Shown here: positions 20,858 to 36,494 of the stretch, piece after piece
How positions within the stretch are numbered: the first letter of the stretch is position 1
Layout of the letters: each line of letters begins with the position of its first letter
Virus record (IMG/VR): IMGVR_UViG_3300009111_000009
Location: 1-38,902 of that record
From: a virus
Taxonomy: Duplodnaviria > Caudoviricetes
Reading direction: 5' to 3' (one strand)
DNA: 38,902 nucleotides
Position numbers and translations under genes: made by a program
Notes under the pieces: model-generated
What the model was told of the DNA's origin: nothing
What the model saw: the letters and a program-made list of their open reading frames with translations, nothing else
Databases searched by the model: none

Positions 20858-20913
20858 GGGTTTCTCCTGATTGCAGGTATCCCCCCTCCTTGTAGCCTCG
20901 CCGCCTTAAGGTG

Positions 20914-20938
20914 AGTTATCCGGAAATTCCGGATAACT
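20914..20938. repeat. Perfect 25-bp palindrome
   Basis: AGTTATCCGGAA-A-TTCCGGATAACT. Confidence 0.9.
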
Positions 20939-21075
20939 GATAGTGCCGGTCTGTTCCCGGCTGTCAAGTACCCACTGTTACACCCGTATCTCTGAACACA
21001 TGGGGGTCCATAGGACTTGGGCCATGTGCAGTTCCCTAATTACTAGGCCACCGGTTAAGGGAGGGACACTACTCA
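20938..21075 (-). ncRNA. C4 antisense RNA-like ncRNA
   Basis: 3' end TGACAGCCGGGAACAGACCGGCAC matches the recalled C4/CI signature UGACAGCCGG-GAAAGA-CCGGC. Closing stem TAGT/ACTA, internal stems TCCCT/AGGGA and CACATGG/CCATGTG. Confidence 0.6.
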
Positions 21076-21090
21076 CCCGTCAATCCCTTC

Positions 21091-21229
21091 GTTGAGCGGA
21101 CCGGACTCGATACCGGCTAGGGGGTTCTCACCCTGACTCTAACCCCCGGCTTCGCCACGCTGCGTTCAGGTTTAGCGCGTGATCTACTCTACTTCACCGC
21201 CTGCGTGTCCTTCCACGCCGCCGCTCAAC
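21091..21229 (-). ncRNA. tRNA-like RNA with an expanded central region
   Basis: 9-bp acceptor-like stem GTTGAGCGG/CCGCTCAAC, D-like arm GCGTG-GAAGGA-CACGC, T-like arm GCCGG-TATCGAGT-CCGGT; no canonical anticodon loop. Confidence 0.7.
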
Positions 21230-21231
21230 CG

Positions 21232-21474
21232 TCAACAACCCTTCTTTCCTCTGGTAACAATGCCGCCCTTCTTGTATCCCTTGACCGGTTGCGGTTTCGG
21301 TGGTGGCGGTTTGTTCCCGCCGACGGCAGACTTTACCTTGTCCACAACCTTCGCCCCAAAAGTCTTGGCGGCCTGGACTGGCGGACTTGGTGGTGATGAC
21401 GGTTTGCTCCCGCCCAACGTGCTGTTAAGTTTGTCCAATGGATTTGCGAGTCCCATAATCTTCTCCTTCTTCAT
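21232..21474 (-). CDS. Small basic Pro/Lys-rich protein ending GYKKGGIV
   Basis: Start likely at MGLANP (GGAGA RBS); disordered composition. Confidence 0.6.
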   Translation of the reverse strand: MKKEKIMGLANPLDKLNSTLGGSKPSSPPSPPVQAAKTFGAKVVDKVKSAVGGNKPPPPKPQPVKGYKKGGIVTRGKKGC

Positions 21475-21874
21475 CCAGCCACTTGATATCTTTCTCTTCT
21501 ACTCCTGCCTCAACCCCCGAGGAAAGCCCGAACCTGCCACCGGCAAAGGTACACAGCCTACCGATCCTCGGGATTTCCTTTTTGTTGGTAGTCTTCAACA
21601 GGATGCCGTAATATTCATACCTTCCTCGCCAGCTTTCATGAAAGTCCACGATCTCAACCAACCGATAATCCCTAGCCTTATAGCCAACCGTGATGACCAC
21701 CTTGTCACCGGGGGCATGTTTGGGCACCTGTACTGTCTTGTCCTTCTTGCTCCTGTGTTTCAACTCCTGCCGCTCTTCTTGCGCTCTGTGACGTACCGAC
21801 CGGAACTTGTCGTCTCCAATCCCCCACTGGCTATGTCCTATGCCTATCGACCTGTCCACGACTGGGGCCTGCAT
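21425..21874 (-). CDS. Hypothetical protein
   Basis: 149 aa ORF abutting the upstream gene. Confidence 0.55.
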   Translation of the reverse strand: MQAPVVDRSIGIGHSQWGIGDDKFRSVRHRAQEERQELKHRSKKDKTVQVPKHAPGDKVVITVGYKARDYRLVEIVDFHESWRGRYEYYGILLKTTNKKEIPRIGRLCTFAGGRFGLSSGVEAGVEEKDIKWLDEEGEDYGTRKSIGQT

Positions 21875-22063
21875 TCAGTACCCCCTCCGCTTCTTCGACG
21901 CCTGCCGCGTTGTGATACCGTGCTGCTGGGCGTATTCCTTGTTGGTGGGTTTCCTGTTGCGGACCTTGACTATACCAGATGGCTTGCCAATAACATTGCC
22001 CCTCTGGCCATCCGGGATAATATCGCCTGCCGTATAGACGCCTGCATTCGGTTCGAATCTCAT
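21875..22063 (-). CDS. Small basic protein (HGITTRQASKKRR)
   Basis: ATGA overlap with the upstream gene. Confidence 0.6.
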   Translation of the reverse strand: MRFEPNAGVYTAGDIIPDGQRGNVIGKPSGIVKVRNRKPTNKEYAQQHGITTRQASKKRRGY

Positions 22064-22221
22064 TTTTTGGTTTTCCTCTCGGGCAGCTTCTTCTTGCTGC
22101 CAGTATCGGCTTTGTTGAACTCCTTGGCCACCTTGACCGGGATGCCCAGCTTCTTGGCGAAGGCTGGATTGTGCGCTGCTGCGCCCATGGTACGTTTTTG
22201 TGCTTTAGATACTGACGGCAT
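22060..22221 (-). CDS. Conserved 53-aa basic phage protein
   Basis: Not in ORF track. MPSVSKAQKRTMGAAAHNPAFAKKLGIPVKVAKEF matches a widespread small phage family; AAAGGAG RBS. Confidence 0.85.
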   Translation of the reverse strand: MPSVSKAQKRTMGAAAHNPAFAKKLGIPVKVAKEFNKADTGSKKKLPERKTKK

Positions 22222-22486
22222 AACGTGCTCCTTTATCTGTGTCCAATCTCTCCAATCCCCTATGGCTCATCCATTCAGCCATCTTAACTTTACTTCCCCA
22301 ACATCCTAGAGGCATATTCTTGCGGATATGCCGTACCAGCTCCATCAAACACGCCTGATGATCGGAGTCCGCACGGTCGAAAGCGCCCAGCAGATCGTTG
22401 CAGAGGACTGCTTCCAGAAAGCCGCCCACCGGCTGGCCGTGTTCGACGTACATCTTAAGCGAGTGTATCGTGTGTTCTGGGATCAT
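22205..22486 (-). CDS. Conserved hypothetical phage protein
   Basis: G.P.GGFL.AVL.NDL..A..RAD...P..CWGS motif. Confidence 0.75.
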   Translation of the reverse strand: MIPEHTIHSLKMYVEHGQPVGGFLEAVLCNDLLGAFDRADSDHQACLMELVRHIRKNMPLGCWGSKVKMAEWMSHRGLERLDTDKGARYAVSI

Positions 22487-22497
22487 AGTGCCCCCCC

Positions 22498-23313
22498 CTA
22501 TATGACCGCGTATTGTTTGTGGATGGTCCCTTTATTCGGGTCTCCAACCACGCAGGGTTGTATCCAGATATTGTCTTTTGGCAATCTCCTGATATGTCCC
22601 CGCCTCAAGTGCTGACGGGGTGAGGCGTGTGTACCGCCGAGATAAACCCCTTTACTACTTACCATCGCCCGTGTGTCCACAACCAGCATCTTTGTTTCAT
22701 AGAAAGGGAGTTTGCCTTCGCTAATTCGTTTGCCGTTTTTGGTCGAGGCATCCTGGTAGTTGGTTGTCGAGACATTACGGCAAGAGAGAGCTTCCAAGAG
22801 TTCTATTACGGCTGAAATATACACCGTAGCCATACCCGCTACATCAGTTTTCTTCTCGACTATTTTTTTGATAGTCGGAAACAATATTGCATAGGAATCT
22901 GTTTTCACCATGCCTACTTTTGTTATGCCCTCTGTTATCCATGCCGCGATTGGACATGGTAGCCATAAATTGCAATCATCCTTCCAGTATGATGCGCCTG
23001 TTACTGTAACTCCACCAGCAGTCTCATTCTGGTAAGCTAATGCAACATACTTTGCTTGGTATCTATCTGACCAGTATTCCACGGTAATTTTAGGGTAGGG
23101 CAAATTAAAGTCCTTGCCCAGGAGCCCGGCACCGCCACCCCCTAACAAAGAGCATCCATCAGGCACAACGAAATGCACCGAATCCCTTATTAAGTCCGCA
23201 ACACCATTGAAATTTTTTATTTCTCTTGGATCAAATTGGAGTTTAGGAGACATCTCTACCGCCTTCCTGAGTGAAGCCTCCGCCTGCGCCGCATAATTCT
23301 TCGCCGTTATCAT
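22498..23313 (-). CDS. Conserved hypothetical phage protein with HxRRGHxR C-terminus
   Basis: GTHASPRQHLRRGHIRRL...IWIQPCVVG; more AT-rich than its neighbours. Confidence 0.75.
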   Translation of the reverse strand: MITAKNYAAQAEASLRKAVEMSPKLQFDPREIKNFNGVADLIRDSVHFVVPDGCSLLGGGGAGLLGKDFNLPYPKITVEYWSDRYQAKYVALAYQNETAGGVTVTGASYWKDDCNLWLPCPIAAWITEGITKVGMVKTDSYAILFPTIKKIVEKKTDVAGMATVYISAVIELLEALSCRNVSTTNYQDASTKNGKRISEGKLPFYETKMLVVDTRAMVSSKGVYLGGTHASPRQHLRRGHIRRLPKDNIWIQPCVVGDPNKGTIHKQYAVI

Positions 23314-24149
23314 GATGCATCCCCTATCAACGCCAGATCTGGTTCCCTCCCGTAAAACAACGCCAATCTTGCCAAACCTTTTGGGGTGAGCCGTACCTGC
23401 TCACTAATCGCCTCGCTTCCATCCGGAAGCTGGTATGTGCCAACCTTGTGCTCCACCCACCCTTGAGTTACTTTTTCGGAGCGCCCCAGCCAATTTTTGT
23501 TTCCCTGTCGCCTGTAGATACAACGGAGGGTCGTTGACAGATCCCTGATCAATTTTTTCCGTGTTATCTGAAGCGCCTTAGAAGTTTCGGTAAGATTCAG
23601 GGAACCATCAGCTAGGGAGATCCGCCGCAAAGCTTCCGCTTGCGGAACAAGCGCTGCATTCTCGGCTTGAAGCGTTATGACCTTCTCCGAGTATGTCAAA
23701 AGCAGACCACGCATCGCCACCGGATCATTAAGGGCCTGCATAGGGTCAATAGCGGCTTGCTTCGCTCTCCGCTCGCAGGCGATGAAGTATATCCGCGCCT
23801 TTTTGCCTTGGTCGTTCCGCTCAACCATGGAGATTTCTTTCGCCATGTCGAGGGCGAGAGCGTATTCAATTGATGGCCGACCCCCAGCAGAGTTTTCCAT
23901 AATTTTATGGAAAACTATAAAGTCCTGATTTTCCACGAAACCGTATTGAGCGATACGATCTTTAATCCAGGTCGAGAAATCCTGCTTGCTCCCTAAAAAC
24001 TCATGCAGCTTTCGAGCGTCCACCGTCTGAACACCCTCATCCCCAATCCTCCGCGTTTCCACAGGGATCAGCTCGTGGCTTTCCGTGCTCTCCTGCCTGT
24101 TGAACTCTATCTCTGTCTGCGGGTTTTCATCCATGTTCAACCACTTCAT
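23310..24149 (-). CDS. ant: Antirepressor (AntA/AntB N-terminal plus KilAC/ANT C-terminal domain)
   Basis: VDARKLHEFL...DFSTWIKDRI..YGF.ENQDF, GGRPSIEY...DMAKEISMVERN..GK.AR.YFI.CE; C-terminal QVRLTPKG. Confidence 0.9.
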   Translation of the reverse strand: MKWLNMDENPQTEIEFNRQESTESHELIPVETRRIGDEGVQTVDARKLHEFLGSKQDFSTWIKDRIAQYGFVENQDFIVFHKIMENSAGGRPSIEYALALDMAKEISMVERNDQGKKARIYFIACERRAKQAAIDPMQALNDPVAMRGLLLTYSEKVITLQAENAALVPQAEALRRISLADGSLNLTETSKALQITRKKLIRDLSTTLRCIYRRQGNKNWLGRSEKVTQGWVEHKVGTYQLPDGSEAISEQVRLTPKGLARLALFYGREPDLALIGDAS

Positions 24150-24187
24150 AGCTTCCCCCCTTTACAGTGTTGACTTCGCCCTCGCCT

Positions 24188-24484
24188 TTACTCCTCCTCT
24201 TTCCATCCCTCCGGGTCCATCTTGGTAATCGGCAACCACGGCACTCCATCCAAAAGCCCAGGTTGTTCGTCGCCCAAATCAATCCGCTGCTTCGCCTTCC
24301 ACAGTTCACGCCTCTTGACGATCACCGGCAGGGTCGTAATCCCTTTCAGGCTCAACAGGCTGTTCAGGTGACTTTCGTTTCTGGACAGATATGGACCGAA
24401 TCTGATCTGGCCGTCCACAACCAGATAGAACGCCGGGACCATCTCGTCCCCTCGCGGCTTCTTATACGTCCTGACTCTCGACAT
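24188..24484 (-). CDS. Hypothetical protein
   Basis: 98 aa with GAGGAG RBS. Confidence 0.6.
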   Translation of the reverse strand: MSRVRTYKKPRGDEMVPAFYLVVDGQIRFGPYLSRNESHLNSLLSLKGITTLPVIVKRRELWKAKQRIDLGDEQPGLLDGVPWLPITKMDPEGWKEEE

Positions 24485-24812
24485 CTTCGCTCCTCAATAA
24501 TTCGAACAGTAAGCCATGGGCATTGAAGACGATTGCGCAGAGAGAGTCATGTATGCTCTCCGTCATTTCCTCCTGGTAGCCCTGATTCCACAGCCACACG
24601 TCCATGTAGTGCCGGTGAAGGGAGCCCACATAGCTATCAACCGGTATCCCCTTCTTCCAGTTGTCCGGATCTCGCACACTTCCGTCCGGGCAAAGGCGGT
24701 GCGTTTGCAAATATTCGGCGCATCTCTTCATCACCCGTGAGTCGAAGAAACGGTCGAAAGCCATTTTCTCCCCACTCGCGGACCTGATCGCGCCAGTAGA
24801 GAAAGTCTTCAT
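24462..24812 (-). CDS. DUF5664-like dATP/dGTP diphosphohydrolase domain protein
   Basis: FSTGAIR, DNWKKGIP, SLHRH, LCAIVFN motifs; family-typical start MKTFSTG at 24812. Confidence 0.7.
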   Translation of the reverse strand: MKTFSTGAIRSASGEKMAFDRFFDSRVMKRCAEYLQTHRLCPDGSVRDPDNWKKGIPVDSYVGSLHRHYMDVWLWNQGYQEEMTESIHDSLCAIVFNAHGLLFELLRSEDVESQDV

Positions 24813-25308
24813 CAACTCGCTCGGGCTTGACGGGTTTGGGTCGTTTCTTTTCGTATCTGGCATCGCTGACCCGCTTACAGATCCGGCAGAATCCGAATGG
24901 CGTTGTGTTTTCTGGCGTTCGTTCATGACCTCTCCTGCAAAACTGTCTTCTGGGCATGGGTTTCTTGGCGAGGCGTCGTTCCGTTTGGCAGAGAGCGCAC
25001 AGTCCTCCCCCGGTCGAACTCTTCTTGGTCGTATTCTCCTTGGTCGCCGGATGGAGGTCGGGATGATCGCAGAGCCGAGGGTTGACAGCTTTCAGCGCCG
25101 CGTATTCCGCTATCCGCTGTTCTTTGGATTTCCCCGTCCGCTTTCTCTTCCGTACCCTCTTGAGCAGCATTTCCTTTTTGGCCTGCATGTCGATCTCGTT
25201 GCAGATCGCGCATCGTGCAAACTGTAAGTTGTCCGGAGTCAGGGGGTGTCCCCTGTCACAGTGGGTCCGGTTATGTAAATGCTTCTCTCCGGGCTTGGTT
25301 TTCCTCAT
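24637..25308 (-). CDS. Basic protein with three C-x2-GH...T.EN...CxxC zinc fingers
   Basis: HCDRGHPLTPDN..CAIC, CDHPDLHPATKENT..CALC, FCRRGHERTPENT..CRIC. Confidence 0.7.
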   Translation of the reverse strand: MRKTKPGEKHLHNRTHCDRGHPLTPDNLQFARCAICNEIDMQAKKEMLLKRVRKRKRTGKSKEQRIAEYAALKAVNPRLCDHPDLHPATKENTTKKSSTGGGLCALCQTERRLAKKPMPRRQFCRRGHERTPENTTPFGFCRICKRVSDARYEKKRPKPVKPERVDEDFLYWRDQVREWGENGFRPFLRLTGDEEMRRIFANAPPLPGRKCARSGQLEEGDTG

Positions 25309-25567
25309 ATCTCATCTCCGCCCAGTCCTGTCTAAGTCCGGACAGGATACGGACCTCTATCTCGTGGAAGTCTCGGGAGGACATGATCTGGGTGATCTCG
25401 GTCTCGTTGTGGCAATCGCAAACCAGATAGATCTCGTTGATCTGGATGTCCTCCGGCTCGTCCGGATCAAGGAGGAGTCCATGCTCCCTGGTCCCCCTGT
25501 GCGAACGCAGGTAGTCGTAATCGACCAGCAGCGTCAATCCCTTGTAGATAACTCCGCTACGCGCCAT
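25271..25567 (-). CDS. Small acidic hypothetical protein
   Basis: TAATG coupling to the upstream gene; DPDEPEDIQI motif. Confidence 0.65.
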   Translation of the reverse strand: MARSGVIYKGLTLLVDYDYLRSHRGTREHGLLLDPDEPEDIQINEIYLVCDCHNETEITQIMSSRDFHEIEVRILSGLRQDWAEMRYEENQARREAFT

Positions 25568-25743
25568 TACAGTTTCTCCAGCCACGTAGAGGGTTCTCCC
25601 TCGTCATGCCTGCCGACACGCCAGAAGTACACATCTGCTAGGGCGAACGTTCGTCCGCAGCAATCGCAGGTGACGGTCTTCCCGCTCGGGCGGCCATCAT
25701 GGATGCCGAGGAAGCAGGCTATCTTCCGAAGTATCGTGTTCAT
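25567..25743 (-). CDS. Small Zn-binding protein (CFLGIH...CDCCG)
   Basis: ATGA overlap with the upstream gene at 25740-25743. Confidence 0.65.
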   Translation of the reverse strand: MNTILRKIACFLGIHDGRPSGKTVTCDCCGRTFALADVYFWRVGRHDEGEPSTWLEKL

Positions 25744-25934
25744 AACCCCTCGCTGGTGTTCCTCATTTTGTTCACTGCGAACGCGATTACCGTGAAAGCA
25801 CATGCGGCCAGCTCCTTCTTTTCGTCCCTCCGGACCATGTACAGGGCACACATCGGCGTACATCCGCCTGCCTGGAAGGGGCAGGCCATCATCTCTGTCG
25901 TGTTCTTGTTGAAAGCGATGTCGAAATATTCCAT
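25740..25934 (-). CDS. Small Cys protein (CPF...C...CALY...CA)
   Basis: RBS AAAGGA; Cys spacing. Confidence 0.6.
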   Translation of the reverse strand: MEYFDIAFNKNTTEMMACPFQAGGCTPMCALYMVRRDEKKELAACAFTVIAFAVNKMRNTSEGL

Positions 25935-25938
25935 GGGG

Positions 25939-26352
25939 CTATCCTTTCAGTTGGAAGTGCATCGGATCTGGGGTGTGCCACGTCCCTCCCCAGTCGAAGC
26001 CTGCATCGGTAAAGCATCTGACGAGTTCAGGCGGCTGGGCAGAGGGCTCTCCCATCGGGTTGAGAGCGGCGTTGATATCTACTGCGACTCCCCACGAGTG
26101 GAGGGACATGCTGTTGCCGTGTCTCATTTTGCGAATATTGGTGCAGCCGTCGTAAGTCTTGAGCTGGTGGGAGAGTCCTCTGTCGAGGATGTTGTGCAGG
26201 GCGGTATTAAGCGGTATCGCCATATCTATGTTGCAGTAGATGGAGGAGGGGAGCCGTAGGGACTTGAGTTCGGGTGGTACGTGGTACACTGTCCGGTTGA
26301 GAGCGGCGTAGGGATCGCCGTAGCGCTTGAAACATTCGTCGGAAGTGAGCAT
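25939..26352 (-). CDS. M15-family metallopeptidase, probable endolysin
   Basis: SLHSWGVAVDIN and WGGTW...DPMHFQ zinc-binding motifs. Confidence 0.9.
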   Translation of the reverse strand: MLTSDECFKRYGDPYAALNRTVYHVPPELKSLRLPSSIYCNIDMAIPLNTALHNILDRGLSHQLKTYDGCTNIRKMRHGNSMSLHSWGVAVDINAALNPMGEPSAQPPELVRCFTDAGFDWGGTWHTPDPMHFQLKG

Positions 26353-26368
26353 TCGTTGTCCTTTCTGT

Positions 26369-26660
26369 GAAAAATCGGGAGAAAAAATTTTGACGGAAAG
26401 AAAAAAATTGGATCACGGAAAAATGGGTTCGGCGTCAGTCTCCTGTTACGATAAGATATAGTTGCTACGGCACCACCCTCTTGTAGCAGGGGTAGGGGGG
26501 GGTGGCATCCAGGGACCAGGGACCAGGGCAGGGCCAGGAGCTGGGAGCTGGGAGCTGGGAGCCGGGGCAACTGTGAGCGCTACGCTTGCCGGGCAACTCC
26601 TTGACAATGATGTGACCACGAAATATAAAGAACAGTGAATCCAAGTACTTAAAACAATTA
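26369..26660. other. Candidate packaging initiation / genome terminus region
   Basis: Non-coding, just downstream of terS. Phased A-tracts (26369-26425), G8 run, tandem heptamers CCAGGGA and GGAGCTG (26509-26565), IHF-like ATCCAAgtacTTA near 26640. Confidence 0.55.
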
Positions 26661-26690
26661 TTAACTACTTACAATCATCACAGTCACATA

Positions 26691-27146
26691 TCAATCACAA
26701 TCAGATCCGCGCAACCTTGCCATTCTTTGTTCATGAGTTTCGACCAACATAGTACTTTCGTCCTTTAGCACGTCCAAAACCTTGTATGCCAGCTCCAACA
26801 TCTTCCCCTGAGTAGCGTTATCTGGGACTTCAATCGTTCCGGTTGCTGTATTTATGATTTTCTTGGCATCAATTAGCTGTTTGTGCTTATGGAATAACAG
26901 GTCTTTTGTTAGTCCATGGAGAGCCGCTTGCTCGATTTTATTCACTACTTCCCTGACTTTAGGCTCGTTTCCAGCCGAAACCACGGTAGAAATGCCGTAA
27001 GGAAGTGCAAAACCGACTTGCTCTGCTATAGCTTTTCTGGACATTCCTTTAGCCAGACCAAGCGCAATCCTACGTCTGACGGGGCTTAGCGGTTTCAGAG
27101 CCTCGATAACTCCCCTCATTAGTTCTTGCTCCACCTCGGACACCAT
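26691..27146 (-). CDS. terS: Probable terminase small subunit
   Basis: N-terminal HTH (GMSRKAIAEQVGF), helical middle, PDNATQGKMLELAYK motif; first gene of the leftward operon. Confidence 0.7.
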   Translation of the reverse strand: MVSEVEQELMRGVIEALKPLSPVRRRIALGLAKGMSRKAIAEQVGFALPYGISTVVSAGNEPKVREVVNKIEQAALHGLTKDLLFHKHKQLIDAKKIINTATGTIEVPDNATQGKMLELAYKVLDVLKDESTMLVETHEQRMARLRGSDCD

Positions 27147-27223
27147 ACTACTTGCTCCTCATAACTAGCATATTTTCACTACTTACCCTATCCCTAATAA
27201 TCTTAATGAAAGACATTAACTAG

Positions 27224-27251
27224 ATTATACTCATTACCAAATACTTGTCAA
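27224..27251 (-). promoter_or_regulatory. Consensus sigma70 promoter for the leftward arm
   Basis: TTGACA-16 nt-TATAAT on the minus strand. Confidence 0.8.
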
Positions 27252-27349
27252 GCGTCTCTGTGAAAATAAAACAGACTCTCTGTTATTATTAAAAATAAAT
27301 AATGCCGGCCGACAGCTAAGTCACCGAAATCACAGCCATAAAAAAGTTC

Positions 27350-27379
27350 TTGACTTTTCATCATCTTGAAGAGTAATGT
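27350..27379 (+). promoter_or_regulatory. sigma70-like promoter for the rightward arm
   Basis: TTGACT-18 nt-TAATGT with upstream A-tract; predicted start near 27386. Confidence 0.55.
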
Positions 27380-27385
27380 TTTAAT

Positions 27386-27691
27386 TGAAAGCGGAGAAAT
27401 CCACTTTCCCTCCCCCGACGGGGGGAGCCCATAGCCGGGCAAGCTGACGCGGTAACGGCCAGGGGAAAAACCCCCGGTGCATATCCGCGCAACGGCCAAA
27501 CGAACGGCACCACAGCGAAAGTCCACCAACCGCGACCTATGGTGATAGGTATCCAGCGGGAACGGACAGAACGCTGGCGACTAGGCACGTAACGGACGAT
27601 AATGTCCCCCCGAGGGGCTGGACAGCCTAGACCGCATAAGTCCCAGAGCCGAGACTAAAACTCCGGGGGCACTGTTATTTTGACGCTTTCA
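27386..27691 (+). ncRNA. Candidate ~305-nt structured ncRNA or leader
   Basis: Closed by TGAAAGCG/CGCTTTCA; several nested GC-rich stems; no credible ORF. Confidence 0.6.
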
Positions 27692-27840
27692 GCAGGTTAA
27701 GCGAACGAAAGCTCGTTGTTTTGTGGCTTTTTCAGAGCATGCGGCATCAGTCCGCATGTTGTGGCACAAGGCCACAAATGCAATGGATTGCATAGGAGGT
27801 ATCACTCCAAGGCCAGAAACGGCAGACAAAGGGGCACACC

Positions 27841-28158
27841 ATGGCAACAACAAAAAACGGCAAAGGGAACGGCAAACTTGCAATGGCGGACTTTGTAACC
27901 ACGGCTATCCTGAAACTGCGGAACGTGGAAAAGTCCAAAGGTATCCACAGCGTATTCTCGGGCTTTAATGAGGCATTCCGCGAGTATTACGGTCTGGACA
28001 AAGACCACGCCATCGCGGCAGTCAAGGAGCTGGAAGCTAAAGGGATCATTAAAAGCCATTTCGCAAGGGGTGGCGTTATGCTTTACATCCCTGCGGACTT
28101 CCCAACAAAAACCAACGGACACAACGCAACGGCCACGCTTAATAAAATCTTAGGTTAA
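27841..28158 (+). CDS. Small winged-helix-like protein
   Basis: FV..AI.KLR...KGIHSVFSGFNEAFREYY...L...G.I...GGVMLY; resembles a conserved bacterial hypothetical family (from recall). Confidence 0.75.
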   Translation: MATTKNGKGNGKLAMADFVTTAILKLRNVEKSKGIHSVFSGFNEAFREYYGLDKDHAIAAVKELEAKGIIKSHFARGGVMLYIPADFPTKTNGHNATATLNKILG

Positions 28159-28175
28159 CAATCGGCAATGGATTC

Positions 28176-28199
28176 AAGGGGGGTGGCAACATCCCCCTT
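28176..28199 (+). terminator. GCAA-tetraloop hairpin
   Basis: AAGGGGGGTG-GCAA-CATCCCCCTT. Confidence 0.5.
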
Positions 28200-28224
28200 A
28201 CCCTTTCCAGAGAGGAGAGCAACC

Positions 28225-28458
28225 ATGGAAGCGGTTAAAGCCAAGACAAAAAGCGGCAAAGAAGTCTTCCGTCCGAAAATGGACGATTGCGAGTATGTCC
28301 AACTGTCAGACGATTACACCGGTTTTTGCATCTCATGCGGCGAAACCCAAGAGGGATGCGAACCGGACGCAAGGGGCTATGAGTGCGAAAGCTGCGGACA
28401 GCATAAGGTCTATGGTTTGGAAGAGTTAATGATGATGGGCTATATCATCCTGGTTTGA
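28225..28458 (+). CDS. Zinc-ribbon protein
   Basis: GFCISCG...CEPDARGYECESCG..KVYG.EE, a conserved phage family. Confidence 0.85.
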   Translation: MEAVKAKTKSGKEVFRPKMDDCEYVQLSDDYTGFCISCGETQEGCEPDARGYECESCGQHKVYGLEELMMMGYIILV

Positions 28459-28549
28459 ACATCGGTACACCATGCCTTAACAAGATCCACCAAACAGTTA
28501 AGACATGGTAACGGGTGGTCAACGCACACCAGAAAGGAGGTAAGCAGCC

Positions 28550-28684
28550 ATGTTGACAAAATACACACCGGACTATGAATGCCGAGTCCTTAACCGTCTT
28601 GCCGATATGGCATACAAGCACGGTGGCACGGCTAAGGTAAGGGAAACATTGGACAGGGCTATGGTTCACATCTGGGAGCTATAG
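28550..28684 (+). CDS. 44-aa hypothetical protein
   Basis: Not in ORF track; AAAGGAGGT RBS; MLTKYTPDYECRVLNRL... Confidence 0.65.
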   Translation: MLTKYTPDYECRVLNRLADMAYKHGGTAKVRETLDRAMVHIWEL

Positions 28685-28715
28685 CCGCAACAAACATGGT
28701 AAGGGGGTGAACGAA

Positions 28716-28853
28716 ATGAGATGCCCAAGGTGTAACAAGGTCATTGCCCCTAATGAGTATACAAGGGGTCATTGCACAAACTGCGGTAAGGCAATTGAAC
28801 GTGAAAAGCGGTATGAAATCGAAATTCACGTTCCTTTCGAGGAGACAACCTGA
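28716..28853 (+). CDS. 45-aa zinc-ribbon protein
   Basis: Not in ORF track; MRCPRCNK...HCTNCG; GGGGGTG RBS. Confidence 0.7.
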   Translation: MRCPRCNKVIAPNEYTRGHCTNCGKAIEREKRYEIEIHVPFEETT

Positions 28854-28897
28854 AAAAGAGCGAAATCAACCCGAAAATAGCTCGTTCTCTCTTTCAC

Positions 28898-29289
28898 TAT
28901 AGATATGTATGTATCTATGACATGCTATCCTTATAAGTATAGAGAATGATTATTATATCTCTATCTATCTATGGTGATACGCATGATGATACGCTTGATA
29001 CGCTTGATACGCTAATCATAGAGAGCTATCTATACCCAGCGTGTCAGTCCGCTATAAGAAATGCACACACACCAAAAAAACAGCACACTTCCAAGCTGGC
29101 AGAAAAAGCGATTAGCTCGCTTTAACACTAAGCCGGTGAGCCTGTTGTGGTAACGGTTAGCACGGCACACACCCGAACCAAACGAACATGGCAAGTGACA
29201 CGCTGAAAAAAAAGAAGCAATGATTCCAACACGTTGAAAAAAGGAGTGTCACGGGCGTTCATAGGCGTGTCATTACCCATGTGACACGC
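28898..29289. repeat. Iteron-like TGAYACGC array with AT-rich tract (candidate origin)
   Basis: Direct copies at 28975, 28987, 28996, 29005, 29196 and 29282; inverted copies at 29039 and 29265; AT-rich 28898-28972. Confidence 0.6.
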
Positions 29290-29313
29290 TCAAATGCACG
29301 CAGGAGGTGCAAA

Positions 29314-29823
29314 ATGAAACTCAATTCAAAGGTCAAAAAGGTCTTGGCAAGCGACCGCTTCCACAACTGCGCTTACGTCTATACAGACGGCATAGTCATT
29401 AATGAAAAAGCGCAAGGGGTGGCAAGGGGTCTGGCATTCGAGACGGAAATCATCCACATCATACCCTTTACGGAAGAGGTAAAATTCCGCATATCAGGGA
29501 AGTCACACGACGACAATCAGCGGATCTTCAAAGGCCGTTATGTTTTCCACAACCCGACACTGTTAATCGACGGCATCACGCGCCTGGAAATCTATCTCGG
29601 CAATACCAGCGATAAGATGAAAGAGATGGGTATTTCCTGCGATACCATCACGTTGACAACGGACAGCGGCATGAAAATCAGTGAAGATTGCTTCACGTTC
29701 ATATCTTCGGACATAGCGTTCCAGAACGACAGGGCGCTGTCCATTATGGACTGGGACACCTGGGAGTATAAAGACCGGATCATCTGGCATGGGGCCAAAC
29801 CGGAGCACAAAGAGGCGGCATAA
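29314..29823 (+). CDS. Hypothetical protein
   Basis: AGGAGGT RBS before ATG 29314. Confidence 0.75.
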   Translation: MKLNSKVKKVLASDRFHNCAYVYTDGIVINEKAQGVARGLAFETEIIHIIPFTEEVKFRISGKSHDDNQRIFKGRYVFHNPTLLIDGITRLEIYLGNTSDKMKEMGISCDTITLTTDSGMKISEDCFTFISSDIAFQNDRALSIMDWDTWEYKDRIIWHGAKPEHKEAA

Positions 29824-29838
29824 CAAAAGGGGGACATC

Positions 29839-30240
29839 ATGAAAAAGCACTTAACACGGGACGACTTCCAGCACATCGGGAGCCTGATAACCTATCAGGC
29901 AGACGATAAACAGTATTGCCTTGGTTACCTGATCGACTTCAAAGGTCATGGCGTTTTCGAGCCTAACCTTGGCAAGGTGGACATAACACCGGAAGAGGCG
30001 GACATACACAACGCCTGCCTGGACACTGCCATGCTTGAGGGTCTGGACAAAAACTGTGAGGTTGGCATGGGCGGCACGTTTTACCTCCTAGACGGCAAGG
30101 TTAAAACGTTCACAGGAAAAATAGTCAGCGAAGATGTTGCAATCACAGGCAAGCACATCGTTTTTATCAGGGGCGGCATGACATTTAAGGGAACGCTACA
30201 GAAGGATGCGGACTGCTTTAACTTCAGGCGCACGGATTGA
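29839..30240 (+). CDS. Hypothetical protein
   Basis: 133 aa, G-rich RBS. Confidence 0.75.
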   Translation: MKKHLTRDDFQHIGSLITYQADDKQYCLGYLIDFKGHGVFEPNLGKVDITPEEADIHNACLDTAMLEGLDKNCEVGMGGTFYLLDGKVKTFTGKIVSEDVAITGKHIVFIRGGMTFKGTLQKDADCFNFRRTD

Positions 30241-30316
30241 ACGCTCATACACGTAGCGCCACGTCAAAGATGGCGCTGCGGAATGGGTAGTCAAGCCCAA
30301 GGGGGAGGTGATAACA

Positions 30317-30550
30317 ATGCCGACAACAGGAAAGTACACGGTTAAACCGTACAAATGTTCTAAATGCCAGACCGAAAAGCTGATCGGCACGAACCACTGG
30401 GGAGACATTTACCCCTACTGCAAAAAGTGCTGCAAAATCACGGTTTGGAACTGCCTGGAACCATTGCCCGAAGGGTACGAAAAACCAGAGCCCTGGAAAC
30501 TGGTGACTTTGGGCGAGATATGCGAGATCAACATCGACAGAAGGAGGTAA
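30317..30550 (+). CDS. Zinc-ribbon protein
   Basis: YKCSKC...TNHWG.IY..CKKC; GGAGGTG RBS. Confidence 0.75.
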   Translation: MPTTGKYTVKPYKCSKCQTEKLIGTNHWGDIYPYCKKCCKITVWNCLEPLPEGYEKPEPWKLVTLGEICEINIDRRR

Positions 30551-30555
30551 CCATC

Positions 30556-30966
30556 ATGTCAGCATACATCTGCGAAGACAAGACCATCAACCGCATAGTC
30601 ACATATTTACAAAACAGTGACGATATGGGCTATGCACGGGAAAGAGTACTTGGCAAGCTGGGCTACACCGGCAAGTTTGCAGGGGAGCTTGGCAGGGCAA
30701 TGTTTGAGCTTAACTGCCAGAGCATCGAGGAGCGCTACGGGAAAGGGCAAGCCAAGGAGTTCAGGAGTCTGGATTACAAATACAAACCTGTCCCGTTAAT
30801 ATCTGCAATCCAGGTGTACAAGTCCCTTCTATGCTACCTGTACCAAAGCTGCGAAGGAAAATGCGACAAGACCGAACTGTATACAGCCCTTGACGAAATC
30901 AGCAACCTGATGGCCGCTGAAATCGTTAGGGGACTACCGGCCTACGAGCAGGCCATCTGGGGGTAA
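30556..30966 (+). CDS. Conserved hypothetical protein
   Basis: MSAY...N..S...RY...K.L.CY.YQSCE family; AAGGAGGT RBS, so the start is 30556 rather than 30364. Confidence 0.8.
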   Translation: MSAYICEDKTINRIVTYLQNSDDMGYARERVLGKLGYTGKFAGELGRAMFELNCQSIEERYGKGQAKEFRSLDYKYKPVPLISAIQVYKSLLCYLYQSCEGKCDKTELYTALDEISNLMAAEIVRGLPAYEQAIWG

Positions 30967-30980
30967 TACCCCAAGGGGGG

Positions 30981-31262
30981 GTGAAAGCAATGAGGTTGTT
31001 AATCGAGCTTAACAGAGACGAGTTAGACGCCTTGCAATATCCGGTTATGGTTGAAGGGTGGCACAAGGTGAAAGACCAGGGCAGCAAGCGCCGAAAGTGG
31101 CTTGCGGAATTTGACGAGAAGGAACGGGCTCTCCTGGGGAAATACTACAACCTGTTTTACGACTGGCATTTACACAGGGGAACGCCTGAACACTTGGCAT
31201 TCAGGAAAATGGAGACCATCGACCTGATAAAAAGGGCAGTCGAGTTTTTCGCCACGGTATGA
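30981..31262 (+). CDS. Hypothetical protein
   Basis: Packed ORF with G-rich RBS. Confidence 0.7.
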   Translation: MKAMRLLIELNRDELDALQYPVMVEGWHKVKDQGSKRRKWLAEFDEKERALLGKYYNLFYDWHLHRGTPEHLAFRKMETIDLIKRAVEFFATV

Positions 31263-31277
31263 ACGGGGAGTGAGGTC

Positions 31278-31574
31278 ATGAAAATTCCACCATTAACAGA
31301 AGTCAATTGCAAATACGGTGCTCCCATGGGACGTGCGGACGCAATCGAAGAACCAGACGAACCGATTAAATTCAATCTGGTCAGACTTCCGTGGGTTGAT
31401 TACGACTATGACCCCGGCGGCGCTTACTGGGGGTATGTCCAAGGCGACCACATCTACCGCGCCGTAGGGGAGGGGCCGGAGTTTGTCAATGAAATGTTTG
31501 TACGGGCAAAAAGCAGGGGGGAAGCAAAGATGAAAGTCAAGGAGACTTTCAAGCTGGCAACGTTTTACAGGTGA
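31278..31574 (+). CDS. Conserved phage protein (YGAPMGR...YD.GGAYWG)
   Basis: Recognisable motif; RBS. Confidence 0.8.
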   Translation: MKIPPLTEVNCKYGAPMGRADAIEEPDEPIKFNLVRLPWVDYDYDPGGAYWGYVQGDHIYRAVGEGPEFVNEMFVRAKSRGEAKMKVKETFKLATFYR

Positions 31575-31586
31575 GGGGGTAAGGTC

Positions 31587-31832
31587 ATGATAACCACGCA
31601 ATACGAAATCCGTCTGGATCTGAAGGGTGAAGTCACTTACCGGAAAGCCGATGAACGCTTAACGAAATGTCATGAAGCGTTATATACCGAAAACACAGTC
31701 AGCGTCGAAAGCATGAGCGGCAACGGCGTATGCGCTCCATACATCAAGGTTATTGTCGAAGATCTGGAGCAAGCAAGGCAAATCGAAGCCAGACTTCAGA
31801 AGATACTGGGGCGCTGGCTGGACAGGGGGTGA
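31587..31832 (+). CDS. Hypothetical protein
   Basis: Packed ORF, RBS. Confidence 0.65.
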   Translation: MITTQYEIRLDLKGEVTYRKADERLTKCHEALYTENTVSVESMSGNGVCAPYIKVIVEDLEQARQIEARLQKILGRWLDRG

Positions 31833-31836
31833 GAGC

Positions 31837-32034
31837 ATGAGACAAGTCAGCAAATGGCACACATTAGCGGACGGTACAAAGTGCGCTAAATGGCTCGGTA
31901 ATGGCGATGTTCGCGGATTCAGACCTGTTCCAGATGGCTATGGATGCAAGGCGGATCTGGTAGAGATCCATCCCGTCACCGGCAAGCGCATGAAAAACAG
32001 CGAATGGTGGATCTTCCTGACACCGGAGAGATAG
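31837..32034 (+). CDS. Hypothetical protein
   Basis: GGGGGTG RBS before MRQVSK. Confidence 0.65.
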   Translation: MRQVSKWHTLADGTKCAKWLGNGDVRGFRPVPDGYGCKADLVEIHPVTGKRMKNSEWWIFLTPER

Positions 32035-32045
32035 GGGGTGGGGTT

Positions 32046-32225
32046 ATGACAGCGGAAGAGAAGTTTGGCGTCGAAATGATTCAGGCGCTGCAAAAAGTAA
32101 GCGGCATCGACGAAAGCGACAGCGATGCTCTCAACGGTTGGCGGTCTATGTCAGAAGGCGAACGCGAAACCACTAGGATGGTCTACGGTTTATTGTTCGC
32201 AAAGAGGGAGGGGGCGAGAGTATGA
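32046..32225 (+). CDS. Hypothetical protein
   Basis: G-rich RBS before MTAEEK; ATGA overlap with the next gene. Confidence 0.65.
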   Translation: MTAEEKFGVEMIQALQKVSGIDESDSDALNGWRSMSEGERETTRMVYGLLFAKREGARV

Positions 32226-32764
32226 AGAAAGAAAAGGCAACCTGCAACGTAATAGACCCAACTACCGGGAAAGTTTGCGGTGAACCGGGATTAATAGACG
32301 GGTGCTGTTACGACCACGCCAAAATGTGTACCGAATGCCAGGAACCGGCACACCCTGACACCAAAATTTGTGCAAGGTGCCAAAAATACCACGCAACAAA
32401 CCTGCAAGCCCTAGCCAAGGGCTTGCGCTGCGAACTGTTTGCAGACCGGCCAACAATCAAAGAGGCGCACGAATATGCTTCCAAGATTGCCAAGGCTTGC
32501 GGCAAGGAGCAAGAGATCTACGTCCTGACAGCCTTGCATGTCATGATGAACACCATAGCGAACGAAATCGAGAGGGTAGCTGGCAACGAGCGGAAGCTTA
32601 TAGCCAAGTTGTTTGAGATCTGCGAGGGAGAATACCCCGAGGATCAATGGGACATTGACTATAAGCCTGTCAGAGAAGCGCAACGGTTTCTCAAAGGGGT
32701 AAGTCATGAAAGCGGCGAAACGGAAACACACAATGGGAACCCTGACAGCAACGCTGATTGCTGA
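32222..32764 (+). CDS. Cys-rich N-terminus plus helical domain protein
   Basis: Several Cys pairs; VLTALHVMMNTIA. Confidence 0.65.
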   Translation: MKKEKATCNVIDPTTGKVCGEPGLIDGCCYDHAKMCTECQEPAHPDTKICARCQKYHATNLQALAKGLRCELFADRPTIKEAHEYASKIAKACGKEQEIYVLTALHVMMNTIANEIERVAGNERKLIAKLFEICEGEYPEDQWDIDYKPVREAQRFLKGVSHESGETETHNGNPDSNADC

Positions 32765-32912
32765 AGGGGTGGAAAAAACCGACGAAGAGACCACATTGGA
32801 AGCATGGCAGGTGTTAGTTGACACCGGCCTATGCTGGCAATTACAGGGGTACTTCGGACGGACGGCAGAGGTGCTGATCGAGCACGGACTGATCAAAGCT
32901 GCGGACAAGTGA
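32706..32912 (+). CDS. Conserved small phage protein
   Basis: AWQ.LVDTGLCWQLQG.FGRTA..LIE.G motif. Confidence 0.8.
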   Translation: MKAAKRKHTMGTLTATLIAEGVEKTDEETTLEAWQVLVDTGLCWQLQGYFGRTAEVLIEHGLIKAADK

Positions 32913-33060
32913 GGGGGGTGGAATTTGAGCCGATTTGAGCGTTTGATTTTAAAACCAATAGTCAGATAAGGGGGGCGCTTTTAAAACGCCCCCACGGGCT
33001 CCACAGAGCGTCTGACGGCACAAAACAGAAACTCTGCGATAGGGAAAGCGAGGTTGAACC

Positions 33061-33462
33061 ATGAAAAATTTTATTGAACTTCACGAAACAATGGATCGCT
33101 ATGTGGACGGGCGAACCCTAACCAAGATGGTCACCCACACCTACCTGATTCAGGTCAAATACATCACCAGCGTTCAGAATCTCAACACCAGTTGCCATGT
33201 GGAATTTGAGGGAGACGCCGGTTACCGAACGCATAAAATTAAAACCGATGAATCCTATGAAACCGTTAAGCGTTTGATAGCGGAAAGCGAGGCCAACGCC
33301 AACCTGATAGCCGCCGTTCCCGAACTGTTGGAAACGCTGGAGGGGCTACACAAGGCTCTCTCTCGGATGATTGACAAACACGATCCTGACAGCATCGAGG
33401 CTGAATGGCTTTCACACTCTCACGAGGTTATCACCAAAACGAAAAGAGGTGAGACAAAATGA
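33061..33462 (+). CDS. Hypothetical protein with ANA.LIAA.PELLE.L motif
   Basis: Common phage motif; RBS GAGGT. Confidence 0.7.
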   Translation: MKNFIELHETMDRYVDGRTLTKMVTHTYLIQVKYITSVQNLNTSCHVEFEGDAGYRTHKIKTDESYETVKRLIAESEANANLIAAVPELLETLEGLHKALSRMIDKHDPDSIEAEWLSHSHEVITKTKRGETK

Positions 33463-33656
33463 AAATCTTCACGGTTGAACTGTCTGGCGGTTACGGCGAT
33501 AACCATTATTGGAACCTGATCTATGCAGGCAACGATTATGCAACCGCCAAAACACTGGCGACAACAGCACCATTTCAGGACGATTACAACAACTGGGCAG
33601 TTATCAAGACCTGGGAAAACGGGATAACCACGGCAGCCGAAGAGGTCAACCGTTGA
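33459..33656 (+). CDS. Hypothetical protein
   Basis: ATGA overlap. Confidence 0.65.
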   Translation: MKIFTVELSGGYGDNHYWNLIYAGNDYATAKTLATTAPFQDDYNNWAVIKTWENGITTAAEEVNR

Positions 33657-33669
33657 GAGGAGAACAACC

Positions 33670-33954
33670 ATGAAACCAATGCTAACCGCCGAAGACTGGC
33701 AGCTCTACACAGACATGCTCGGTTGCGAGATCGTCGCCCGTGCTATGACCGATGAACTCAACAGACTATTAAAGATTGCCAAGTATGAGATCATCGAAAA
33801 CGACAAAGATCAAACCTTGGCGGCAAAAGAAGTCAGAGACGAAATGCTCCGCTTCATGGAGAAATACGCCAAGTACGGAGCAAGGGACACCGAGCCTGAA
33901 TGGGCTTTGGTGGATGCCATCAACAGAGCGCTGAAAACGGAAATCAGGAGGTAA
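33670..33954 (+). CDS. Hypothetical protein (YGA.DTEP motif)
   Basis: GAGGAG RBS. Confidence 0.7.
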   Translation: MKPMLTAEDWQLYTDMLGCEIVARAMTDELNRLLKIAKYEIIENDKDQTLAAKEVRDEMLRFMEKYAKYGARDTEPEWALVDAINRALKTEIRR

Positions 33955-33957
33955 GCC

Positions 33958-34383
33958 ATGAGAACCAAAACGAGAGGATACAGCGACAAGTCCTATGTCA
34001 CATTGGAGCAAAAACAGTGCATCGTATGCGGATGCACGTATGACAGCGGGGCGCTCCTGCTGGACATGAAGCTGCGGGACACGTTCGATCATTACACCGT
34101 CACCGGCAACGGCTTGTGTCCTGAGCACGACAAGCTGTTCAAGGACGGATTCCTTGCGCTTGTCGAGTGCGATGAAAAGAAAAGCACTATCCACGGCAGC
34201 ACAATCAAACCCGAGAACGCTTACCGTACCGGCAAGATCACACATATCAAGCGGACGGTGGCCAGGAAGATCTTCAACGTAGAGATCCCCGACAAACTGC
34301 CGATGATGTTCTGCAACGAAGAAACCACAGCCTTGCTGGAAAGCATGAGACCGAAAGGAGAGGACGAAAATGGGAAACATTAA
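33958..34383 (+). CDS. Zn-binding protein of a family common in ICE/plasmid leading regions
   Basis: KSYV.LEQ..C.VCG..YD.G.LLLD..L...TG.GLCPEH.....GF.ALVECD...AYRTG. Confidence 0.75.
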   Translation: MRTKTRGYSDKSYVTLEQKQCIVCGCTYDSGALLLDMKLRDTFDHYTVTGNGLCPEHDKLFKDGFLALVECDEKKSTIHGSTIKPENAYRTGKITHIKRTVARKIFNVEIPDKLPMMFCNEETTALLESMRPKGEDENGKH

Positions 34384-34645
34384 CGAAAAGAACTTTGGGA
34401 GATTCAAAGCGCTCTACGATGAGGCGGTCGAACAGGACAAGAAGTCCTTTATGTTTGAGGGGGACGAGATCCTGACCGCGTATGCAAAATACGTGATCGA
34501 GTACTTCAACCTATCGCGGGGCTACATCTGCGGACAGTGCGGTTATGGCCCCTGGAAATCCCGCGTAGAAGGGGGGCCGAAGTTCTGCCCGTCCTGCCAT
34601 AGCAAGGACTATGACAAACCAAAGAAGGCCAAGAAAGGGGTATAG
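34370..34645 (+). CDS. Small helical domain fused to a zinc ribbon
   Basis: FKALY..A...F.FEG.E.LT.YAKY.IEY plus CGQCG..W..R...PKFCPSC.S. Confidence 0.7.
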   Translation: MGNINEKNFGRFKALYDEAVEQDKKSFMFEGDEILTAYAKYVIEYFNLSRGYICGQCGYGPWKSRVEGGPKFCPSCHSKDYDKPKKAKKGV

Positions 34646-34647
34646 GG

Positions 34648-35160
34648 ATGGAATACCTAGAAGAGCGTTTAGCGGAATTGCTGGAACTTAGCAAGGGCTT
34701 CCTTGAAAAACAGGGAAGCCTTTCAACCATGGCAATCTTTGAAAAACTGGGACTTCCGCCGGTTGTCGAATGGCTTGATATGAGCGAAGAGGGCGCGGAA
34801 AAAAGCCACAAAAAAGTCCAGCAGGTAATACTCCGCGCCCTGCCTGATGCGGTCTTTGTCGTGTCCGACGCCTGGATGGTGCAAAGCAAGAGCCCGAAAA
34901 TACCCAAAGACTACAAACGTGGCTGGGTGGAACAGCAACCCAACAAGACAGAAGCCATAGTGATAACTGCGGGGTCTGTCAACGATGGGGTCAAGGCTAT
35001 CATCCAGCCCTACAAGCGGAAGGGCAAAAAGATCATCTATGGCGAGGTGCTCAAACAAGGAACAATCGAATCGGCTTTCTTCGGGAACACCTGGAAGATC
35101 CGGCGCAACGCCGAGATCAAACAGGCCCAGAGGGAAGCCGAGAAGTCAGTGATTCATTAG
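34648..35160 (+). CDS. Hypothetical protein
   Basis: VSDAW...PNKTEAIV motif. Confidence 0.7.
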   Translation: MEYLEERLAELLELSKGFLEKQGSLSTMAIFEKLGLPPVVEWLDMSEEGAEKSHKKVQQVILRALPDAVFVVSDAWMVQSKSPKIPKDYKRGWVEQQPNKTEAIVITAGSVNDGVKAIIQPYKRKGKKIIYGEVLKQGTIESAFFGNTWKIRRNAEIKQAQREAEKSVIH

Positions 35161-35178
35161 AAGGGAGGTGATTGAATC

Positions 35179-35568: not shown

Positions 35569-35574
35569 GGGGAG

Positions 35575-35907: not shown

Positions 35908-35920
35908 AGGGGGGGGTACT

Positions 35921-36139: not shown

Positions 36140-36155
36140 AAGAGGGGGTGATTTT

Positions 36156-36428: not shown

Positions 36429-36448
36429 TTGTTATCAATCGGGACATC

Positions 36449-36494
36449 GGGGACGCGAGAGATTTTTTAATCTTCCGCGTCCCCCCTTTTTTTG
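36449..36494 (+). terminator. Intrinsic terminator of the early operon
   Basis: GGGGACGCG...CGCGTCCCC followed by a T8 run. Confidence 0.8.

Follow-up and report, generated by a model that had tools for sequence, protein, structure and literature searches.

The locus examined here raises the question of what is encoded by the roughly 300 nt that lie at the head of the early gene arm of a phage genome and contain no credible gene. The genome is represented by record IMGVR_UViG_3300009111_000009, which is linear, 38,902 nt long and 53% complete; the whole record was analysed and is referred to below as the window. The minus strand carries genes for a major head protein, a portal or adaptor, a large terminase, an anti-repressor and an endolysin, and the plus strand from 27841 consists of a run of small genes, almost all without a family. 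The gap between these two arms contains a perfect leftward promoter (TTGACA-16-TATAAT, 27251–27224, minus strand), found by consensus scan, which would drive the late arm together with the gene at 26691–27146, whose position suggests a terminase-small-like product. It also contains a rightward site on the plus strand (27350–27379) composed of TTGACT at 27350–27355, an 18-nt spacer and TAATGT at 27374–27379, as had been reported in the preliminary description. This predicted sigma-70 promoter has 8/12 consensus matches, and was therefore unlisted by the scan, for which the cut-off was 9/12; if active, it would place the +1 position at about 27384–27387. An operator-like inverted repeat at 27353–27374 (7/8 bp, 6-nt spacer), the only copy of its kind in the window, overlies the promoter and may be bound by a repressor. 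The open reading frames overlapping 27386–27691 are of 20–22 aa on the plus strand and 33–93 aa on the minus strand, none of them credible, in agreement with the earlier claim of about 305 nt free of coding sequence.

The plus strand of 27386–27691 was predicted to fold with an energy of -121.3 kcal/mol and a z-score of -3.38, and 0/100 shuffled sequences folded equally well, so that the stability expected of the proposed structured RNA was recovered. When the window was scanned with a 306-nt frame, the RNA had the lowest energy and the third best z-score of 64 positions (15 shuffles each). Tiling of the genome at 150 nt gave z <= -3 for 14/259 tiles, and the three tiles over the RNA gave -4.59, -1.28 and +0.44. 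The minus strand of 27386–27691 had a z-score of -3.93. Because the minus strand and other genome tiles score similarly, the z-score alone is modest evidence and gives no strand. The unpaired bases of the plus strand fold are A-rich (60/130), as expected of a real RNA, and those of the minus strand are U-rich. The plus strand is favoured because of the promoter, the A-rich loops and the changes in a natural variant that give G-U pairs on this strand. Low z-scores (-4.8 to -5.3, from 15–20 shuffles only) were also obtained for 12853–13158 on the minus strand and for 2701–2850 and 16951–17100.

The predicted structure is closed by a helix, P1, in which 27386–27393 pairs with 27684–27691 (pair probability 0.996 over the 306 nt); among 20000 shuffles, 44 produced a perfectly complementary partner of the +1 octamer within the following 400 nt. 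Every helix named in the preliminary description was found where it had been placed, with all domains on the plus strand. An alternative 5' hairpin with a GAAA loop (27387–27408) is exclusive with P1 and is predicted to win in long read-through transcripts. Two short hairpins follow at 27410–27440, one of 7 bp with a GACG loop and one of 3–4 bp with an AUAGCC loop; the first (27410–27427) and the GCCC/GGGC helix (27427–27440) share G27427, and both are predicted only, in a part of the RNA outside variant coverage. The arm at 27448–27489, with a UAACG/GCAUAU internal loop and a GGGG-A5-CCCC tip, and the long arm at 27513–27576, with three A-rich internal loops and most pairs at a probability >= 0.9, are likewise predicted only. 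A three-way junction domain with an AACGG-loop hairpin is predicted at 27577–27635, where the CTAGGC/GCCTAG region was located at 27581–27630, and at most one change occurs in 27592–27629 of the variant described below.

Several likenesses suggested by the fold were rejected. An 8-bp pseudoknot between 27451–27458 and 27672–27679 was no better than chance (739/2000). By eye, some motifs recall RNase P, a group I intron, the hairpin ribozyme or the cobalamin riboswitch, with the order wrong or the partner strand absent in each case and no Rfam score. The CsrB/RsmZ sponges present many GGA motifs in hairpin loops; the RNA contains 7 GGA, with 0/7 wholly in loops of the predicted fold, and a CsrB-type sponge was discarded.

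A natural variant of the 3' third was obtained from run X8 as one 161-nt contig (27592–27752, depth 2.2) with 12 differences from the window. The 11 listed differences all lie within 27630–27684 (55 nt), the other 106 nt having at most one, and the part beyond the RNA (27692–27752), which covers part of a hairpin at 27714–27786, likewise having at most one. This cluster may reflect constraint on the flanks, or a patch recombined in from a more distant homologue. At the stacked pairs 27649:27666 and 27650:27665 both sides are changed and remain paired, a result that supports base pairing in this hairpin. A compensatory stack of this kind arose in 1074/200000 trials in which 11 changes were placed randomly, and double compensation arose in 22387/200000 trials with the changed positions fixed. 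The same changes break both the minimum free energy register of the last hairpin and the register of the preliminary description, in which GTCCC paired with CGGGGGC and GAG/CTC enclosed CGAGA...TAAAA; the arrangement CC-GAG-loop-CTC-C-GG is retained. The last hairpin was therefore redrawn at 27640–27670 as 4 bp, a CAGAG bulge, 2 bp, a C bulge, 3 bp and a 7-nt loop, in which CGAGA is mostly stem and not a T-loop. Thus the multidomain RNA proposed for the head of the early arm stood as regards its fold and a limited covariation, and was abandoned as regards the shape of the last hairpin and the CGAGA T-loop.

Other changes in the variant bear on neighbouring helices. A candidate pseudoknot of 5 bp joins the loop at 27656–27660 with 27678–27682; both loop changes of the variant keep the pairs, being one-sided transitions and as such weak support. 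In P1, the change at 27684 results in a G-U pair if the partner outside the contig is unchanged; pairing at the changed positions 27630 and 27635 would be lost unless the partner bases, also outside the contig, differ too. The covariation thus consists of two stacked compensatory pairs from a single partial variant of 161 nt, and the 5' two thirds of the RNA is without one. The segment 27640–27663 is reminiscent of a tRNA T arm and acceptor strand read from the opposite strand, a likeness which is probably due to chance, as the complement of CCA is absent and the variant breaks the T-loop consensus.

The motif AACGG is repeated in the RNA, with 5 copies compared to 0.9 in shuffles (5/5000 shuffles). 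Any 5-mer as enriched as this was found in 71/2000 shuffles, giving a p value of about 0.035 after correction for multiple testing. AAC is unpaired in all five copies of the predicted fold. The motif also occurs five times in 27818–28128, four of these as Asn-Gly codons, and the 500 nt upstream of 84 other loci encoding relatives of the first early protein contain at most 2 copies each.

Comparison with known RNA classes returned no match. Rfam 15 at the gathering threshold gave 0 matches in the window, ROOL, GOLLD, raiA, RNase P, 6S, SRP, riboswitches and CRISPR repeats being included, and at E <= 10 the region 27200–27900 gave only a 14-bit chance match outside the RNA; the earlier statement that the RNA is of no recognised class therefore holds. 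Searches using blastn gave 34 short matches with E >= 0.6 among 50,697 phage records and none among 72,556 plasmid records, and a search of 401 genomes at the DNA level returned a single match of 30 nt, as expected by chance. Pattern scans of IMG/VR produced 15, 9 and 43 loci, one in each being the RNA itself and none a homologue; the corresponding scan of JGI metagenomes produced 14 loci, 1 of which was the RNA's own and most of the others, by eye, the reverse strand of tRNA T arms. Viral scans anchored on the winged-helix, large terminase, small-terminase-like and capsid proteins gave no homologue of the RNA, the capsid-anchored scan yielding 64 loci, of which the 63 non-own loci were negative by nhmmer. 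Two covariance models were used (R1 and R2), each of which holds one sequence, so that distant relatives can be missed. R1 matched 1/88 sources (its own) and 0/5; on 32 of the 63 capsid virus records it matched 1/32, an overlap with itself, and on genomes 0/68, 0/151, 0/5 and 0/5. R2 gave weak matches of 17.9 and 13.5 bits that R1 did not back. The closest relative is a 62-kb contig with a capsid 90% identical and probably also the 72% identical winged helix. Either the RNA family is rare or it lies beyond the reach of models built from one sequence. No description of the RNA was found in the literature searched, and the three of six supplementary files searched of a catalogue of 10,000 candidate viral RNAs (PMC10690425) contained 0 matches, an entry elsewhere in that catalogue being possible.

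The stretch was contained in sequencing runs labelled wetland or freshwater. Capsid relatives were found in 4/301 and 2/401 genomes of the two phyla searched, which does not settle the host. The anti-repressor gene ant at 23310–24149 (minus strand; PHROG E 1.6e-49) hints at a temperate lifestyle, and in that case a quiet prophage could be a source of the RNA. G-rich tandem heptamer repeats lie at 26488–26570, downstream of the terminase-small-like gene, and are possibly a packaging or terminus signal. An origin-like stretch at 28890–29015 contains AT-rich palindromes and four GATACGC repeats (28976, 28988, 28997 and 29006), and the 306-nt frame in this region has a folding z-score of -4.49. 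Strong intergenic hairpins occur within the early arm at 30251–30281 and 36447–36490, the second being followed by a U tract and looking like the terminator of the arm. The decamer GCAATGGATT has 2 copies only in the window (27780 and 28165), each copy preceding one of the first two early genes. The RNA is neighboured by a 105-aa winged helix and a 151-aa helix-turn-helix-like protein, and none of the reverse transcriptase, nuclease or recombinase families that accompany retron, DRT, omega and bridge RNAs was present among the 33 and 19 proteins scanned. ARAGORN found 0 tRNA or tmRNA genes in the window, the record being 53% complete, and a tmRNA was rejected accordingly.

A hint of the transcript itself came from assembled sequencing runs. 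A search with 27300–27900 identified 8 runs from 5 studies that hold the stretch. Two of these, X2 and X3, are labelled METATRANSCRIPTOMIC WGS and were rated 'RNA? (probably DNA)'; both were chosen by this very stretch. None of the 8 runs is recorded outright as RNA, a blank that counts neither for nor against expression. In X2 the sole contig on the compared region 19000–38900 (19.9 kb) is 27401–27725 (325 nt), and in X3 the sole contig on the same region is 27399–27696 (298 nt), each identical to the window. These contigs start 13–15 nt inside the predicted 5' end, stop 5–34 nt past P1 and have no loose ends. From the DNA runs of that study, X4 yielded 13 pieces in 9 of 30 bins and X5 yielded 17 pieces in 15 bins; the predicted 5' end is spanned by DNA contigs in X4, X6 and X7. 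A contig of equal length placed at random, but still retrievable with the search region, would meet both ends at 21/809 and 18/782 positions, or 21/353 and 18/326 by a stricter share, which corresponds to a rough chance of 2–6% per run with tolerances set after seeing the data. Run X1, of which 35% was read, had no contig on the region. The pattern is the one that a discrete stable RNA would leave, and constitutes a weak hint: X2 and X3 are one study with contigs of depth about 5, falling below the bar of the tool for even a weak hint from two studies, and the contigs give neither strand, ends nor level. The gaps in their cover are no proof of silence, and the capsid gene lies outside the compared region. 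The transcript predicted in the preliminary description is thus weakly hinted at by two contigs suggestive of a discrete species, from runs of one study that were rated as probably DNA.

The sequence downstream of P1 offers two ways in which such an RNA could be released. A weak terminator-like hairpin at 27700–27723 (plus strand), unlisted by the scan, has a GAAA loop, one mismatch and an interrupted U tract, with an energy of about -4 kcal/mol and a pair probability of 0.19–0.64. It overlaps a long imperfect 73-nt hairpin at 27714–27786 (plus strand), between the RNA and the first gene, which has an energy of -38.5 kcal/mol and a z-score of -6.23 (0/200 shuffles). The X2 contig stops within the 5' arm of the longer hairpin. 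A long imperfect intergenic stem is expected of an RNase III processing site, and 27714–27786 is such a stem; compared with the anatomy of the T7 RNase III processing hairpins, it would be a plausible site for an RNase III cut. The probability of P1 depends on the position of the 3' end, being 0.996 for the 306-nt span, 0.97 at 27725, 0.54 at 27790 and 0.04 at 27845, where the 5' hairpin at 27387–27408 replaces P1. As the probability of P1 falls with 3' length, the released RNA is predicted to be closed and read-through transcripts to be open. The 3' strand of P1 can instead pair into the terminator (27685–27690 with 27707–27712). The terminator has a probability of 0.51 with P1 forced compared to 0.38 with the 5' hairpin forced, and because this link is weak a sharp attenuator is disfavoured.

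The first early gene (27841–28158, plus strand) encodes a 105-aa winged-helix protein of an unnamed family, with no Pfam, PHROG or NCBIfam family. The family contains 23 close matches and 872 representatives at E <= 0.001, with 327 loci in GTDB genomes, 80 of which were fetched, and 8 viral loci. A model of the protein (pLDDT 79.4) shows a winged helix for which no single structure stands out as nearest: no Foldseek match reached E <= 0.001, and the fold ties among DNA- and RNA-binding domains, namely SelB (Z 7.5, rmsd 2.6, 66 aligned), DsrD (Z 8.1) and MCM (Z 8.3). The preliminary description had expected homologues of the RNA upstream of such genes. At the 87 other family loci (80 bacterial and 7 viral) nhmmer detected no sequence match to the RNA (0/87); in 86 of them R1 detected none, and the one R2 match there, of 17.9 bits, was unsupported by R1. 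Many bacterial copies lie less than 100 nt behind another gene, which leaves no room upstream. As its gene travels without the RNA, the RNA is not a fixed partner of the winged-helix protein and an obligate RNA–protein pair is unlikely; the inverted repeat at 27353–27374 is a more ordinary possible DNA target for this protein.

The winged-helix family is itself well conserved, with the motif KGIHSVFSGFNEAFR and in some cases up to five tandem copies, and occurs in Nitrospirota, Binatia, Aminicenantes, Methylomirabilota and others. In the Nitrospirota loci L063, L071 and L079 (~1600–4200) the gene lies between what we take, from the N-termini, to be a queC-like gene and a selA-like gene of ~469 aa. 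At L084, L086 and L087/L088 it seems to be the leading gene of a divergent phage arm, with two tandem copies at L086, and at L084 and L086 repeat-rich stretches similar to that at 28890–29015 lie ahead of the early arm. The protein may be a host regulator repeatedly captured by phages.

From these observations 27386–27691 is taken to encode a genuine, uncatalogued structured RNA of the phage; the support for its expression and pairing is thin, although consistent, and its function is conjectural. It is probably a discrete and stable RNA that is likely separated from the early transcript by cleavage or termination. For an RNA of that kind a decoy role is slightly favoured, so that the complete explanation, a trans-acting decoy that ties up a host RNA-binding protein of defence or regulation, is put forward tentatively. 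Transcription from the predicted promoter would begin at about 27386, and the 3' end would be set by the weak terminator at 27700–27723, by an RNase III-type cut in 27714–27786 or by both, with subsequent trimming towards P1. Release would favour the closing of P1, which is computed to open in read-through transcripts, and the closed RNA might then outlast the messenger, as the contigs weakly hint. The A-rich loops, five with AAC unpaired within AACGG, would be the likely protein-binding surface. A decoy is preferred because the RNA would be made first from the early arm and is seen as a discrete piece, because the window contains no antisense target for it, and because it repeats AACGG five times. 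A more ambitious form of this explanation, in which a new class of pseudoknotted, self-folding phage RNA of ~300 nt is the first phage product, snaps shut on release, accumulates far above every phage messenger and disarms a host immune or regulatory protein via its AAC loops, is considered unlikely; if true, the phage would possess an RNA counter-defence that is large and multidomain, in contrast to the short mimics of repeats or guides described to date.

The main rival, considered somewhat unlikely, is a cis-acting early leader (attenuator, antiterminator or stabiliser), in which the fold or a bound ligand or protein decides between a stop at 27700–27723 and read-through, the stable piece being a by-product. 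In its favour, the RNA is preceded by the only predicted promoter and followed by the first gene, with no second promoter there in the scan, P1 and the 5' hairpin are mutually exclusive, and the P1 3' strand can enter the terminator instead. Leader-only contigs are also expected of an attenuated leader, and a leftover of this kind, if stable, would give the same X2 and X3 contigs, which counts against the decoy. A precedent for the position is HK022 putL, which sits just behind an early promoter (PMC9378689). However, the computed coupling is weak, the terminator has an interrupted U tract and an energy of only about -4 kcal/mol, no match to a riboswitch or leader family was obtained, and the RNA has four times the length of put. 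Quite unlikely is an RNA-only self-assembling scaffold like ROOL, GOLLD or OLE, without a single protein target. The RNA is phage-borne and multi-junction, possibly pseudoknotted and possibly abundant. Self-kissing of its GACG loop is conceivable from the example of retroviral kissing loops. The ROOL, GOLLD and OLE classes form RNA-only multimers (PMC12286853), but the present RNA has half the length of ROOL (581 nt, PMC5737381), no tRNA genes in the window and no Rfam similarity, and raiA, at 205 nt, was a monomer in the study of ROOL and GOLLD multimers (PMC12286853).

Adjacency and the ties of the winged-helix fold among DNA- and RNA-binding domains would suit an RNA that is the partner of the adjacent protein, as a ribonucleoprotein or an autoregulatory leader; this is improbable given the 80 bacterial and 7 other viral loci without an RNA match and the plain DNA target that the operator-like repeat offers. 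It is very improbable that the region is a DNA-level element or an accidental GC-rich fold without RNA function. Both strands fold beyond shuffles, other genome windows score equally and the expression runs may be DNA, yet the bulged helix has compensatory pairs, G-U and one-sided changes are tolerated on the plus strand, the loops are A-rich and the contig ends match the fold. The least probable of all these readings is an RNA anti-CRISPR. With a start at 27384 the RNA would begin with AUUGAAAG, a crRNA 5' tag that could load Cas subunits; this octamer is the Pyrococcus Cmr tag (PMC4215187), and Racrs lie behind their own promoters (PMC10651486). The 8-nt handle ATTGAAAG is present at 27384–27391, and ATTGAAAG/C occurs on the same strand just once more in the window. 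Against it, the handle is mostly paired, 6/8 tag bases being locked in P1, no Rfam CRISPR repeat family matches, the rest of a repeat would fall in the untranscribed promoter, and the motif was picked out post hoc.

Large structured RNAs occur rarely, and many prove to have unusual biochemistry; ROOL and GOLLD, both phage-borne, are still without a function. The RNA described here has a predicted start and release signal, is of a size amenable to cryo-EM and SHAPE, and may already have been captured in environmental RNA. Its +1 position in the early arm makes a role in counter-defence or host take-over directly testable. Even if it acts only in cis as a leader, it would represent an uncatalogued phage attenuator of unusual size. 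The rarity of the RNA limits the reach of the finding.

When the RNA is compared with known systems, the closest in general character are ROOL (RF03087) and GOLLD (RF02032), which are phage-encoded, multi-junction and possibly abundant, with a protein-independent fold as is predicted here (PMC12286853, PMC5737381). Those RNAs are often found near tRNA islands, have several conserved pseudoknots and form RNA-only homo-oligomers (PMC12286853, PMC5737381), and ROOL reaches an abundance like that of rRNA (PMC12286853). One difference is length, ~580 and >800 nt compared to 306 nt here (298 and 325 nt for the contigs); the present RNA is moreover without an Rfam score or tRNA neighbours in the window, lies at +1 of the early arm and is very rare. 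The raiA motif RNA is of a similar size class and is also a compact multidomain non-coding RNA of obscure biochemistry (PMC5737381, PMC12286853), but is chromosomal, widespread and highly conserved, and the present RNA has no Rfam match. HK022 putL is similar in lying directly behind an early promoter, here a predicted one, and ahead of a long early operon (PMC9378689). The put RNA binds the beta-prime zinc-binding domain and suppresses termination, acting while tethered to RNA polymerase, and has two stems in ~70 nt (PMC9378689), whereas the RNA described here has six domains plus a closing helix in 306 nt and appears discrete, so that the put-like antiterminator of the preliminary description is disfavoured. 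The transcripts of T7 are processed by RNase III (PMC6938266), and the hairpin at 27714–27786 is like the T7 sites in being a long, imperfect stem between genes of an early polycistronic transcript, differing in that its cleavage, as proposed, would release a large structured leader. RacrIF1 and the viral sgRNAs mimic a CRISPR repeat or a ~90-nt guide, unlike the 306-nt multidomain fold without an Rfam repeat match considered here. They are nevertheless phage non-coding RNAs that are expressed behind their own promoter and sequester host Cas proteins (PMC10651486; 10.64898/2026.06.01.729453), and in both respects, position and action as a protein decoy, they resemble the mechanism proposed for this RNA.
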